Shown: positions 4,488-63,134, counted from the stretch's first letter. The stretch is 64,000 bases of DNA from a virus (IMGVR_UViG_3300035183_001040:1-64000), one strand, 5' to 3'. Made by a program: numbers and translations. Notes: generated by a model not told the origin, from the sequence alone.

Positions 4488-4530
4488 CTAAATCGCTTCG
4501 CGATTTAGTCGCTCCGGCGAAACTTGTCAA
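4488..4530 (-). promoter_or_regulatory. Promoter-palindrome element, copy 1
   Basis: Minus strand TTGACA(4530-4525)-N17-TAAATC; palindrome CTAAATCGC-GAA-GCGATTTAG at 4488-4508. Confidence 0.7.
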
Positions 4531-4988
4531 GGGACCTCCTCGGGGTCCCCGTCGATGGGACCCCGGAATTTCCCTTGTTTCGTGCGCGTTCTTTGATCCA
4601 CCGCAAGGTTTTGTACGATTTCTTTGACGCCGCCCCTCTTGCGTGCTAAGTCGCGAAGCGACTTAGTCGTTCCGCCGGAAATTCCGTTCGCCTGCGGCTT
4701 GACCTTCGACGAGGGCGATGCTAAGTCGCGAAGCGACTTAGTCGTTTTCCGGGAAATTCTGCGCGGCTGAAGTAGCCCGTAGACGTCGCGTTTCAGCTCC
4801 TGCAGCCAGAGAAGCCACGCATCCCGGTTCGGTGCGGGCAACGTCTGGACCTGCATTTGGGCGAGCGCGAAGACGTAAAACAGGTGCCTGCGCGCGAGCT
4901 CCTTTCGGGTTGGGCTCTTGGCGCTGCTCAGGCGTGCGACCGCGCCGTCGTTTGCCGGCGCGCGGTTCGGGAGCCTCCACGTGCTCAC
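4527..4988 (-). CDS. Hypothetical protein (C-terminal half runs through regulatory repeats)
   Basis: GTG start overlapping upstream stop; repeated TTKSLRDLA is simply the translation of the palindromes. Confidence 0.4.
   Translation of the reverse strand: MSTWRLPNRAPANDGAVARLSSAKSPTRKELARRHLFYVFALAQMQVQTLPAPNRDAWLLWLQELKRDVYGLLQPRRISRKTTKSLRDLASPSSKVKPQANGISGGTTKSLRDLARKRGGVKEIVQNLAVDQRTRTKQGKFRGPIDGDPEEVP
4624..4666 (+). promoter_or_regulatory. Promoter-palindrome element, copy 2
   Basis: TTGACG(4624)-N17-TAAGTC; CTAAGTCGC-GAA-GCGACTTAG at 4646-4666. Confidence 0.7.
4699..4741 (+). promoter_or_regulatory. Promoter-palindrome element, copy 3
   Basis: TTGACC(4699)-N17-TAAGTC; CTAAGTCGC-GAA-GCGACTTAG at 4721-4741. 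Confidence 0.7.
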
Positions 4989-5872
4989 TGCTCCTCCTCG
5001 GCGATGATTTTCGCCTCGGTGACCTTCGCCCTGAGCCCTTCGACGGCTTCGCGAAGCTTCTCCAACCGCGCCCCGACGAGCTCCTCGTACGTGCCGAGTT
5101 TGGAGAGCATCTCCTGGCACCTGTCCGCCCTCGCTTCGAGGGCGCGCTTTCCGATGCCGCTTGCGATGTCCTGCTCGATCTTTTTCGCGTCCTGCTCGAT
5201 TTCTTCCGCGAGCGCGTGGATGATCGCAAGCGCAGCCTGAGGGCTGCGCATCGCTGGCACCTCTTCAACAGTGCAGGTCGAGATGGAGTGCATGACCTCG
5301 CAGAACCTGTGCCAGTCACGTGCGAACTTGTGCGGGATGAAGTACACGCCGCCGGCGCTTCGCAGCCTGACAGGCGAAAAGTTCCAGACATACGCCGAGA
5401 TCCACGACGAGATGTCGGACGTGTCGAGAAGCATCGTGTTGTTCAGCATCCTCCCCTCGACCCAGTCCCGGAACGTCCGTTCGTTGCCTAGCGTGGGTTT
5501 CCACCCCGGGTTGAACCACCACTGCACGCTTCCGCCTTCGAGCCACGCGCTGCACCACGATTCCTGCTTCCGGTGCACGTCGGGATCTTCCTCGGTCGAG
5601 ACGTCTGCGAGAATCGTGTACCCTGACTTGCCTTTGAGCGGGATCACGCGCTCTCGCGCTGCCGCTGCTTTCATGGCGCGGTGCAGCGCCGCAACTGGGC
5701 TCACGGCAGGCGGCAGGTGGTTCGGGTCGAACGCTGCGACTGCCCACGCCCGTTTCAGCGTCTCGTGGTGGATTTCGCCGCTGAGCGTCCACCACGTGAT
5801 GACGCCTGCCTGGTGTTCCTCCATGAGCGCCTCGTCGCTCCACGGAACTGCGACTAGATCTCTGATTGCCAT
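4985..5872 (-). CDS. DUF6744/DUF3150-like protein
   Basis: GVITWWTLSG, LPPAVSPVAALHRA, LRSAGGVYFIP and C-terminal coiled coil; family usually near AAA/vWA genes in mobile elements. Confidence 0.6.
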   Translation of the reverse strand: MAIRDLVAVPWSDEALMEEHQAGVITWWTLSGEIHHETLKRAWAVAAFDPNHLPPAVSPVAALHRAMKAAAARERVIPLKGKSGYTILADVSTEEDPDVHRKQESWCSAWLEGGSVQWWFNPGWKPTLGNERTFRDWVEGRMLNNTMLLDTSDISSWISAYVWNFSPVRLRSAGGVYFIPHKFARDWHRFCEVMHSISTCTVEEVPAMRSPQAALAIIHALAEEIEQDAKKIEQDIASGIGKRALEARADRCQEMLSKLGTYEELVGARLEKLREAVEGLRAKVTEAKIIAEEEQ

Positions 5873-5907
5873 TTTTGGTCCTCCTCTCTATCTGGTTGTT
5901 TCCTTTT

Positions 5908-6426
5908 TCAGATCACGATAGCGTGCGCGGTCACTCGTGCCACATACGCCGAGTCGTACGCAGTCGCCTCAGCCGAGTCATGGGTAACCACCAGCGCCTT
6001 GTCGTATGCAAGCACACGCGCCGAGTCGTACGCTCTCACCTCCGACGTGCCGTAGGCGGTCACATGCGCTGTGCCATAGGCGACGGCAACGCCGCTGCGC
6101 ACTTCATGCGTTCCGGCGCTGAATATCTGGCGCGCCGCAAGCTCGGAGTCTGTGGCGACGCGGAGCAGTCGGCACCGCCTCGCTGCCACCTTGCGACTTC
6201 GAAAGTCGTCGAAGGAGCCTACGATGCCTTCCGCTTCCGCGACGTATACCGTGCAGCCTCGCACCCACCAGATCGCCGGCGTGTCCGTGAGGTGGAATCC
6301 GTTGCGGCACGGGATCACGGGGCCGTCCACCTCGTGCCACTCGCCGGGCTTGTCAGCATCGGGCAAGGACCACTGCATCTTGCCACCATAGTGTGACCTG
6401 CCATTGACCAGAACCTTGAACAGCAT
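5908..6426 (-). CDS. Phage protein with CxxGFH domain and 8-aa repeats
   Basis: PCRNGFHL motif followed by AYGTAHVT-type repeats. Confidence 0.65.
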   Translation of the reverse strand: MLFKVLVNGRSHYGGKMQWSLPDADKPGEWHEVDGPVIPCRNGFHLTDTPAIWWVRGCTVYVAEAEGIVGSFDDFRSRKVAARRCRLLRVATDSELAARQIFSAGTHEVRSGVAVAYGTAHVTAYGTSEVRAYDSARVLAYDKALVVTHDSAEATAYDSAYVARVTAHAIVI

Positions 6427-6454
6427 CTACGAGTTTCTCCTTTCCCGGTCTGCC

Positions 6455-60888: not shown

Positions 60889-61482
60889 TCACTGCGTCGC
60901 GCACGCGAGCCACATTTCCCACTGGATACTGCCCTTGTAGAGCAAGCCCTGGAACTCGCAACGCCAACCTGTTTTCAGCAGGTAGCCGGCGAGAAGAGGG
61001 TAGCATGCGTACTCGCCGACGTTCTGGTTTGCCGTGTCGATAGCGTAGTAGACGCCGCCTGCGAAAGCCACGTCGTTGTTGCCGTTGCAGTACAGGTCTA
61101 CCTGCATGCGCGGGTTCGGGGCTGTCCAGGTCAACGATTTCCCCACCGTGTACACCTTCGCGCGGTCGAGGCCGCCAGGGTCGCCTTTCGGCCCTTGGGG
61201 CCCGGTGCCACCCTGAGGACCGGGAGGACCTGGGAAGCCTTGCTGGCCCATCGGGCCCACCGGGCCTTGAGGGCCGGGGTCGCCTTGCGGGCCTTGGTCG
61301 CCCTTGTCACCCTTCGGGCCTGCGGGGCCGGGGGGCCCTGGAGGCCCTGCGGGGCCGGGCGGCGCGGGCTCGGAGCACGAGCACGGCGAGGTGCGGCTCG
61401 CGGTAGCGCCCGATTCGGACGAGCCGCACGAAAGAGCCAGCAGTAGAAGGAGTGCGAGAAGCGGAGTCAGTTTTGCCTTCAT
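60889..61482 (-). CDS. Collagen-like lipoprotein
   Basis: [19 protein letters not shown] signal; 20 uninterrupted Gly-X-Y triplets; Cys-containing C-terminal domain. Confidence 0.85.
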
Positions 61483-61540
61483 CGTCGTCAGCCTCCGAGT
61501 TTCGTCTTGCGCGTTCCTCGCGAATTCTGAACCGAACTCC

Positions 61541-61583
61541 TTGACTTTTCCCCGAAAAGTAACTAAGTCGCGTAGCGACTTAG
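61541..61583 (+). promoter_or_regulatory. Promoter-palindrome element, copy 4
   Basis: TTGACT(61541)-N17-TAAGTC; CTAAGTCGC-GTA-GCGACTTAG at 61563-61583, overlapping the terL stop. Confidence 0.7.
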
Positions 61584-63082
61584 CGGCGCATCAAGTCGAT
61601 GTGCCCCACCGCGCCACGGGTAGCGAAGGCCTGGCGGGCGCCTTCGCGGCTGAAGTAACACGCCATCAGTCTGTCGCCCGTGTGCAGAGACGGATCGTAG
61701 GCGAGCATCTCGTTCACCCAAGCTGCGATTTCCGGGTGCATCTTGCCGCCTTCGTTCGGGATCACCCATTTGCCGTTGGCGATTTCGGTTGCCAGTCCCT
61801 CGATGCCGAACTCGGGGTGCAGCTTGTTCTTGCCCGTGTTGAAGGGTCTCACCGGAACCGCGCTCATCTTCTTCGCGAAGTCGAGGATGAACTGCTGCGC
61901 GCTGACGCTTTCGATAATAATCACGCTGTGATACCTGCGGTGGTGGTCGATGACGCGGCTGACGATATCCGGGCCATGCCACCTGCCCGACTCCACCCAC
62001 AGCACCTCGCGCGTGCCGTCGGGCGCAACGGCGATGGTGAAGAACACCGTGAGCGCGGAGTTGCTCTTTTCCCGCGTGCCGAGGTCGACGCCGGTGTAGG
62101 TGCGGTAGCCCGGAGGAACTTGCTGCAGCGCGTAGCAGGGGCGCTTGCCGTCGCCGAGTGAAAGCGCGATGTCGATCCATTTGCGCTGGAACCGCGCGCT
62201 CTGCTCGTCCCGGGAGACGCACATGAGTTGCCGTGCGAACTCGCTCTCGCTGATTTCGTTGCGGCGTTGCTCGATGCGCCAATCTGGCCAGCGCTCGGGC
62301 CAGATGCTCTTTCCGTCCTCGCCCGTAATCGGAATCCGCACGGACTTCCAGCGCGGGTTCCGCGAGAGCTGGTGCAAGAAGTCCTGCGGGTGGAAGGCGT
62401 TGCCGATGGCGATCACCCTAGCGTGCTCGGTCAGGCGGCCCGTGATGTTCGCGTTGTACCAGTTCCAGAGCCGCTCGCGCTCCTTCGCGTTGAAGGCCGT
62501 GTCCCACGTGAGCACGTCGTCTAGGATGACCCGGTCGAAGCGCGAGCCGAGCACGCGGCTCGTTGTCCACGGCACCACCTGCACGCTCGGCTCCTTGATA
62601 GCCTGGTGGCGCTCGACGGTGAACGACGTACTGGTCCAACGAAGCCCGCGCCGAAGGTGAGGAAACACCTCCCTGAGTTCGGCCGAGGTGTCGATGTAGC
62701 TGGCAATCGTGCTGACGATTTTGCGCGCCTGGTCAATGGCGTTCGAGACGACGCAAACGCGCAGGTTCGGGTTGCGCCCGAGCTCCCACAGCACCCGGCC
62801 GATGGACAACTGGAACGTCTTGCCGCTCTCGACGAACGCCCACACGACGAGCCGGTCGTGTTCGTTCGCCAGCTTCTGGAGCAGCTCGTGATGCGGCGCC
62901 TGCACGACGGGCTTCCCGGTCACCTCGTCACGCAGCACGTACTCGCAGAACTCGTTCACGTTGACGCGGGCGACGACGGCGCGCATCCCGCGCGCCCACG
63001 AGGCTACGCGGACCGCGTCGGCGGGCCTGGTGCGGCAAAACTCTGCAATCTCTCCAGGTGAGAGCGGAAGGCGGGAAGTCAC
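61580..63082 (-). CDS. terL: Terminase large subunit
   Basis: [42 protein letters not shown]. Confidence 0.92.
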
Positions 63083-63091
63083 CAGCGCACC

Positions 63092-63134
63092 TTGACAACG
63101 AGCCGAAAAGCTGCTAAGTCGCAAAGCGACTTAG
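63092..63134 (+). promoter_or_regulatory. Promoter-palindrome element, copy 5
   Basis: TTGACA(63092)-N17-TAAGTC; CTAAGTCGC-AAA-GCGACTTAG at 63114-63134. Confidence 0.7.

Follow-up and report, generated by a model that had tools for sequence, protein, structure and literature searches.

The reuse of one operator at scattered promoters is a classical arrangement. The operators of C1 in phage P1, and those of KorA and KorC in plasmid RK2, serve promoters that drive genes in the sense direction, in temperate or plasmid elements and under repressors that have been identified; lambda provides the CII-activated promoters pRE, pI and paQ, which depend on an activator, have poor -35 elements and belong to temperate phages, and 186 and P2 provide convergent promoters. 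In virulent phages, antisense transcription has been seen by RNA sequencing (RNA-seq). In PAK_P3, a virulent myovirus, antisense RNAs are produced mainly early, 15 of 20 lying over structural genes, and its authors propose that they prevent leaky late expression (PMC4933390); LUZ19 and all of its relatives keep one antisense promoter (P001), proposed to stop read-round on a circular genome (PMC10914365). The passages on which we draw describe no shared control logic for either phage. We describe here a five-copy element, a 21-bp palindrome that follows a TTGAC box at a fixed distance, from an uncultured phage of a microbial mat; the sequence under study, hereafter the window, comprises bases 1-64,000 of a virus record in the IMG/VR database (IMGVR_UViG_3300035183_001040) that has 74,760 bases in all. 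With moderate confidence, we read the five copies as putative co-regulated early promoter-operator modules of the host housekeeping-sigma type, four of which would give non-coding antisense or insulating transcripts.

The pattern CTAARTCGCNNNGCGAYTTAG (CTAARTCGC-N3-GCGAYTTAG) has five exact matches in the window, at 4488, 4646, 4721, 61563 and 63114, with 0 expected from 100 shuffles. A tolerance of two mismatches added no palindrome, the whole 74,760-bp record holds the same five copies and no sixth, and the 8-mer half-site TAAGTCGC is found inside the palindromes only. In every copy the perfect 9-3-9 dyad opens 1 nt ahead of the -10 hexamer, and TTGAC-N18-TAARTCGC, which is TTGACN plus a 17-nt spacer, is present in 5/5 (0.06 expected), on the plus strand four times and on the minus strand for the copy at 4488. 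The copies, here called A to E, are as follows.

4488-4530, minus strand: copy A, with -35 CTTGACA (4531-4525), 17-nt spacer, -10 TAAATC (4507-4502) and palindrome 4488-4508
4624-4666, plus strand: copy B, with TTGACG (4624), TGc extended -10, TAAGTC (4647-4652) and palindrome 4646-4666
4699-4741, plus strand: copy C, 75 bp after B, with CTTGACC (4698), TGc, TAAGTC (4722-4727) and palindrome 4721-4741
61541-61583, plus strand: copy D, with CTTGACT (61540), TAAGTC (61564-61569) and palindrome 61563-61583
63092-63134, plus strand: copy E, in the gap upstream of terL, with CTTGACA (63091), TGc, TAAGTC (63115-63120) and palindrome 63114-63134

When the five copies were aligned with 40-nt flanks, (C)TTGAC and the dyad were invariant, and the spacers and flanks were unrelated; D and E have CCGAAAAG in common in their spacers, and B and C are alike over some 25 nt downstream of the dyad (TCGTTyy..GGAAATTC). 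Copy A, whose palindrome is CTAAATCGC-GAA-GCGATTTAG, carries a symmetric G>A / C>T pair that keeps the dyad. An earlier, sequence-only reading of this DNA had pointed to the five palindromes, to the exact 17-nt distance from TTGACN to TAA(G/A)TC in spite of differing spacers, and to the compensatory change in A, and on all three it was right. Judged from the alignment, TTGAC at one fixed distance in 5/5 copies with differing spacers is the pattern of conservation that a promoter, and not a duplication, would leave.

As for the identity of the predicted promoters, the -35 side agrees with the E. coli type (TTGACA-like, spacer of 16-18 nt), TTGAC and 17 nt being present in 5/5 copies, and a TGn extended -10 is found in three (B, C and E). 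Both boxes also stand at the consensus spacing of alphaproteobacterial RpoD promoters, for which the published housekeeping consensus is CTTGAC-N17-CTATAT in S. meliloti (PMC2873474) and TTGaCgS-N10-14-GCtANAWC in Caulobacter (PMC8144410; PMC13004042). The -10 here reads (G/A)CTAAGTC or ACTAAATC. Against the S. meliloti consensus, CTTGAC is perfect in 4/5 copies, with exact spacing and a -10 that agrees at 4-5 of 6 positions (CTAAGT 4/6, CTAAAT 5/6), and against the Caulobacter -10 four copies match at 7/8 positions (GCTAAGTC, for example, at 7/8) and D at 6/8. The final C, which is unusual, is matched because the longer Caulobacter -10, GCtANAWC, ends so, and the 17-nt spacer is one of 14 in the Caulobacter frame. 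The element differs from alphaproteobacterial housekeeping promoters in that position 6 of the 8-mer is G and not A in four copies, and in that the -10 lies inside a perfect dyad.

When the whole genome (74.7 kb) was scanned for TTGAC plus this -10 class, no perfect match with a 17-nt spacing came up other than the five copies. In the 816 kb around terL of 78 relatives, CTTGAC-N17-CTA occurs 9 times (7 after removal of duplicate loci) versus about 2.3 at neighbouring spacings; among the hits is one that agrees with the S. meliloti consensus at 12/12 positions. The phage family thus appears, from these counts, to use promoters in the CTTGAC-N17-CTA frame, an alphaproteobacterial host is plausible, and an alphaproteobacterial-type promoter module seems a better fit to the element than an E. 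coli-type one. Two other promoter assignments were rejected. A sense-strand promoter on the other palindrome arm is ruled out, there being no -35 on that side; and a reading of the extracytoplasmic function (ECF) type, for a phage sigma factor, does not fit, as it would require a spacing of 21 nt to a GTC/CGT -10, out of line with ECF promoters.

If transcription starts, as predicted, 6-8 nt past the -10, the dyad would reach from about -13 to +9, which is where operators commonly lie and where the strands part in the open complex; a dyad laid over the -10 and the start, and repeated at several promoters, is how operators over promoters are recognised, and this is what the five copies display. 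Because all copies carry one site, one factor could act on all of them, and a single dimeric DNA-binding protein could be able to switch the five together. Two genes of the window encode candidate palindrome binders, which we treat as leads only:

14013-14309, plus strand: HTH_17 / excisionase-BldC-like DNA-binding protein (family hit), the second candidate binder
19641-19850, plus strand: XRE/Cro-like helix-turn-helix candidate of 67-69 aa (language-model neighbours; single-sequence model with a pLDDT, the predicted local distance difference test, of 79.5)

A further helix-turn-helix protein that had been proposed, at 8357, is doubtful, its open reading frame (ORF) overlapping a Pfam-supported PcfJ-like gene.

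The surroundings of the copies are best followed on the complete map. Record bases 1-229 equal 74532-74760 save at 4 positions, where independent assemblies from two samples carry the letters of the right end; the matching ends therefore give a circular map, and the genome, whether circular or terminally redundant, is essentially complete, with a length of about 74,531 bp, the source label being 'linear, 85%'. The G+C content is 63%, and about 12% of the genome is non-coding; all five copies fall inside such intergenic DNA. Genes were called crudely from the G+C by codon position, plus family hits. The features around the copies are:

263-1027: clamp-like gene
1206-2621, minus strand: DUF2201 metallopeptidase/vWA gene (family hit)
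2480-3682, minus strand: AAA ATPase (family hit)
3728-4192, minus strand: 154-aa ORFan, the first ORF downstream of A; no informative match
4435-4485, no strand: AT-rich tract (about 50 bp) that begins right after the predicted A start
4540-4566, plus strand: GC-rich hairpin of 10 pairs with a T-rich tail, between the divergent predicted promoters A and B
4985-5872, minus strand: DUF6744 gene (family hit)
60889-61482, minus strand: collagen-repeat gene with an N-terminal signal-like segment, in the terL-portal slot
61580-63082, minus strand: terL, large terminase (PHROG 38, E 1.6e-59; Terminase_6N)
63176-64000 (to 64012 in the record), minus strand: ORF upstream of terL, 'terS', a name given from position only

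On the circular map the minus-strand genes form one stream. It begins with the left arm (12378 to 4985) and continues through a 792-bp gap with C, B, the hairpin and A into the ORFan, AAA, vWA and clamp-like genes and the replication and recombination genes that lie beyond the window on the minus strand (SbcC- and SbcD-like, RecA/UvsX-like, gp32-like, family A DNA polymerase, RusA-like and PD-(D/E)XK nuclease); its last part comprises 'terS', E, terL, D, the collagen-like gene, portal, head and tail, with the endolysin (26094) as the final gene. Copy A is directed left, in sense with the ORFan, AAA and DUF2201-vWA genes. The sequence-only reading had given it this orientation and the AAA/vWA operon as its target, a scope that proved too narrow, since on the circular map A heads the whole replication/recombination block. 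The other four are directed right, as had also been claimed: B and C toward the 3' end of the minus-strand DUF6744 gene in what had been called the early arm, D antisense to terL, and E antisense to the upstream minus-strand ORF, whose designation as terS is one of position only, family searches having given no match for it. The antisense copies B/C, E and D are thus placed head-on to long leftward units, at or near the unit junctions. The claim that D and E bracket terL exactly is true with a qualification: the terL stop codon (61580-61582) sits within palindrome D, and palindrome E overlaps the first TTG (63124) of the longest terL ORF, but the likely GTG start at 63082, favoured by the lengths of homologues (the public gene call is 62989), is 32 nt beyond E. 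The -35 of E overlaps the likely terL ribosome-binding site of the opposite strand.

No credible ORF was found downstream of B-E, and hidden plus-strand genes there are ruled out by antisense-type codon-position G+C, low-complexity translations and the lack of family hits. The hairpin at 4540-4566 is the sole strong terminator-like site of its region, on the plus strand only. Rfam gave no match in 3600-5200; the predicted B/C transcript folds no better than shuffles (z -0.63), and the A leader mildly better (z -2.3). That leader also contains two further small palindromes with 3-nt loops, one at 4409-4431, GGTTCTATAC-TTC-GTATAGAACC, with CTATAC on both strands, and one at 4376-4392, GCGCGAC-GAA-GTCGCGC, in which the core arms of the main dyad appear in swapped order, as well as a direct repeat, AAAATTCTCG(C/G)AGAAC, at 4258 and 4348.

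From the sequences, their spacing and their orientation relative to verified genes, we infer initiation at the five sites, its timing, a binder and an effect, in the following form. Unmodified host RNA polymerase would fire all modules early in infection, and copy A would launch the leftward ORFan-AAA-vWA-clamp-nuclease-PolA-SSB-RecA-SbcCD block. B/C, E and D would fire head-on at leftward units and yield non-coding antisense RNAs of the left-arm 3' end, of 'terS' and of terL, and antisense pairing or polymerase collision would keep the packaging genes and neighbouring units from premature reading. Shut-off would come later, through a phage regulator on the palindrome or a switch to the phage's own ECF-like sigma factor. 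The co-regulated promoter/operator circuit suggested by the sequence-only reading is supported in its composite design, with one shared site used once in sense and four times in antisense; a lysogeny-style interpretation of the silencing it proposed is unlikely, because searches of the complete genome in six frames for tyrosine integrases (PF00589) and serine recombinases/resolvases (PF00239) gave no match. The same result rules out a lysogeny switch and makes the phage look virulent, and early-infection antisense transcription or insulation is a better fit.

It is also possible, even if we judge it unlikely, that a broader principle is at work, namely that a virulent phage with a circular map partitions one leftward stream by private head-on promoters with one operator, so that a single protein, or extrusion of the -10 as a GNA-loop hairpin, lifts the antisense or collision blocks from the terminase and its neighbours together. 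If true, such a partition would amount to a one-input timing switch for packaging that is made of antisense promoters and not of terminators or activators.

A number of observations count against the promoter-operator modules proposed here. The earlier assignment to housekeeping sigma70 geometry is sound for the -35 and the spacing and fails for the -10 of the E. coli type, as TAAGTC/TAAATC has T1 and A2 but C at position 6, and a scan with the E. coli-type sigma70 consensus found 0 sites in both regions. The alphaproteobacterial fit is a presumptive one, and copies of shared descent amount to a single observation. B and C oppose genes called early, and late-gene silencing is therefore not the whole story. 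The 69-aa XRE-like protein gave a weak fold match (Foldseek E at least 0.14), and Pfam HTH_3 had no match in the genome. The runs that contain this phage are DNA runs only. Finally, the motif scan of the full genome and of related phages that the sequence-only reading had recommended returned, outside the five copies, no element, no TTGAC-plus-fixed-offset family and no repeated palindromes in 78 related terL loci, a set drawn from outside the loci of the closest terL homologues (56-57%), or in four whole relatives. The terL gene has many relatives, all at 57% identity or less, and those compared have 30-57% terL identity and broad synteny; no relative has the module, which is private to one genome and draws no support from conservation or from covariation with a binding protein.

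The reading that survives best beside the promoter-operator modules, and which we nonetheless hold to be rather improbable, is that the copies are pure protein-binding sites without initiation (roadblocks, stoperator-like or nucleoprotein sites), at which a complex that reads the dyad and TTGAC would halt leftward transcription at unit junctions. Repressor roadblocks are indeed known from mycobacteriophage L5 gp71, and the symmetry of the dyad, its intergenic location at or near junctions of long leftward units and the non-canonical -10 would all suit such a role. It would, however, have to be a coincidence that the -35 pentamer, the 17-nt spacing, TGn and a CTAnnT(C) -10 are mimicked together, copy A is inverted relative to local transcription, unlike an orientation-dependent roadblock, and the searches for PF00589 and PF00239 found no lysogeny module. 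Stoperators of the L5 gp71 type in particular were rejected, as the sites are symmetric, A is inverted and no integrase or resolvase was found.

Four promoters without a gene to serve would also be expected if the copies were transcription-primed replication origins, with R-loops or primers formed at A/B/C as a bidirectional primary origin and at D/E as secondary ones, for which we see a small chance. Promoter transcripts are used in this manner by T4 oriF/oriG and by the T7 primary origin (tandem phi1.1A/B promoters). B and C stand in tandem, facing away from A, in a region of 792 bp that has no genes, the AT-rich tract of about 50 bp comes right after A in a genome of 63% G+C and is followed by more palindromes, and the genes of the phage include a replication-recombination set of the T4 kind and one for a DnaA domain IV protein. 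However, this unwinding-type tract is downstream of A only, D enters GC-rich coding DNA, so that D and E do not fit, and there are neither iterons nor clustered DnaA boxes; the shared operator would be left unexplained.

Smaller still is the probability that the palindromes act at the RNA level, as terminators, attenuators or stabilisers in minus-strand mRNAs, and that TTGAC is incidental. Folded as DNA, the 9-bp stem is stable (about -8 to -9 kcal/mol), pairing is preserved by the compensatory change in A, and in several bacteria the same palindrome forms a hairpin just past the stop codon of groEL-like ends. D is terminator-like when its minus strand is considered, the hairpin being followed by UUACUUUU (UACUUUU), and E is followed there by CAGCUUUU. 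D alone, however, qualifies as an intrinsic terminator, on that strand; A, B and C have no sense U-tract (B and C none on the minus strand), the U-run of E lies 4 nt past the stem, and A runs opposite to local transcription. A stem of nine base pairs is not long enough for RNase III, and TTGAC exactly 17 nt off on one side in 5/5 copies would have no explanation.

Exact-pattern scans of IMG/VR, GTDB genomes and JGI metagenomes found single unrelated palindromes only, none with TTGAC at the right distance, and in one metagenome-assembled genome the palindrome is a tandem duplicate without TTGAC. In unrelated bacterial and metagenome contigs the same 21-bp palindrome comes directly after ...ATGGGCGGCATGGGCGGCATGGAyTT, which looks like the Gly-Gly-Met tail of groEL with its stop TAA inside CTAA, a stop-in-stem arrangement such as that of terL and copy D.

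Of similarly small probability is the view that the copies are mobile regulatory cassettes and mainly recombination points for module shuffling, their promoter activity being secondary, in the manner of the PeSLs of T4-like phages, repeated units of a sigma70 promoter and a stem-loop that recombine (PMC2839356). D borders a slot between terL and portal (60665-61579) that is variable, with 0.9 kb here and 3.9-6.8 kb of other DNA in the relatives G003, G001 and G004, D and E form direct repeats around terL, and in the natural population the adjacent left arm has joints at the level of modules. The five sites, however, have no joint in the contigs compared: over the 1-20000 covered by the comparison with mat-sample contigs, those of two DNA runs are identical to the window, in both samples, across 1-6494, save four end positions, with no variation at A, B or C. 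Recombination of D with E would moreover remove terL, and no relative has the cassette. In a PeSL the stem-loop stands apart, as a GC-rich terminator that precedes the promoter, and the cassette is oriented like the ORFans it serves, whereas here the dyad overlaps the -10 and +1, and 4/5 copies are antisense without a downstream ORF.

The left arm from 6500 to 12000 is polymorphic in two independent mat samples, with many substitutions and with joints that skip whole modules (10299 to 11421/11505, and 7066 to 11429, for example), while 1-6494 and 12617-18407 are invariant; this variation looks like module shuffling among co-occurring relatives.

Least probable, and to our mind very improbable, is gating by structure, in which supercoiling would extrude the palindrome as a GNA-triloop cruciform and hide or expose the -10 without a protein: the loop is GAA or GTA in 4/5 copies in promoter orientation, the cores GCGAAGC / GCGTAGC match the very stable d(GCGNAGC) mini-hairpin and the dyad covers the stretch that melts when an open complex forms, but the loop of E is AAA, 9-bp arms extrude poorly at physiological superhelicity and the likeness of the loops is perhaps mere common descent. 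Two further candidates were considered. A pac site is unlikely, as three copies are 16 kb from terL. Regarding promoters of the N4 type, a hairpin with a 3-nt loop is present; N4 promoters have no TTGAC box, the longest ORF of the complete genome has 865 aa (PolA), none being of the size of a virion RNA polymerase, and PF00940 had no match in a search whose control gave no match either.

Several features of the genome are worth recording beside the promoter-operator modules. The 154-aa ORFan has no homologue in 5.8 billion proteins and none in IMG/VR, and the DUF6744 protein no relatives in IMG/VR; the 'terS' ORF adjoins terL in 3/4 whole relatives, G001 and G003 among them. The plus-strand arm (12.7-26 kb) opens with a weak ECF-like sigma factor and further encodes ParB-N and HTH_17 proteins, helicases, the DnaA domain IV protein, a primase and a 7-deazaguanine cluster. 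That sigma factor is the first rightward gene after a divergent control region (12379-12708), where two sigma54-like sets of -24/-12 boxes, TGGCACGGTACGTGC (rightward) and TGGCATGTCGTGTGC (leftward), are arranged around two identical 30-bp palindromes. GCATAAG has four genome copies (4216, minus, and 15989, plus, in the window; 69320 and 74202, both minus, in the record), each about 80 nt or less upstream of a gene start; a GAAAAAT-like box precedes three of the four, GCATAG borders the twin palindromes of the divergent region, and GCATAAG may mark another class of promoters, which the phage sigma perhaps uses. Shortly before the clamp-like gene, TTGACA-16-AAGAAT (1046-1073, minus strand) agrees with the E. 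coli consensus at 10/12 positions; it has no dyad and is a candidate promoter in the sense direction. Close to copy E (27 bp) and directly after the stop codon of the upstream ORF, TGTTTCACGTGAAACC at 63161-63176 agrees with the widespread chromosomal parS palindrome at 15/16 positions, in a single copy; a match with 1 mismatch should be set against matches within 3 mismatches in 8/100 shuffles, and the ParB-N protein is encoded at 13350-14009.

If the five promoter-operator modules are active, one regulator would couple the onset of the replication genes with the masking and unmasking of the terminase gene, which would make this phage a compact model of temporal control. The alphaproteobacterial promoter fit, in addition, hints at the host of an otherwise unplaced lineage, the 75-95-kb myoviruses of microbial mats and soils to which this phage belongs.

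Compared with the systems from which we set out, the element shares with P1 C1 and with RK2 KorA/KorC the reuse of one operator at scattered promoters, laid over the -10 and the start, and the RK2 operators are likewise dyad-symmetric; it differs in that 4/5 copies have no gene to drive and that no lysogeny or plasmid-maintenance module was found. With the CII promoters of lambda, and with 186 and P2, it has in common the prospect of one factor for several promoters, some of them antisense to lytic genes, and of face-to-face interference, but here the -35 is near-consensus and the shared site is in a repressor position. There is a likeness, too, to PAK_P3 and LUZ19, virulent phages with promoters in or beside late or structural genes and directed against them, as D and E are directed against terL and its upstream ORF. 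Their promoters were found by RNA-seq, and the passages on which we draw mention no shared operator, whereas ours are predicted from DNA and follow one promoter-operator design. What seems unusual is in fact the combination, absent from the relatives, of one design used once in sense and four times head-on, and bracketing terL.

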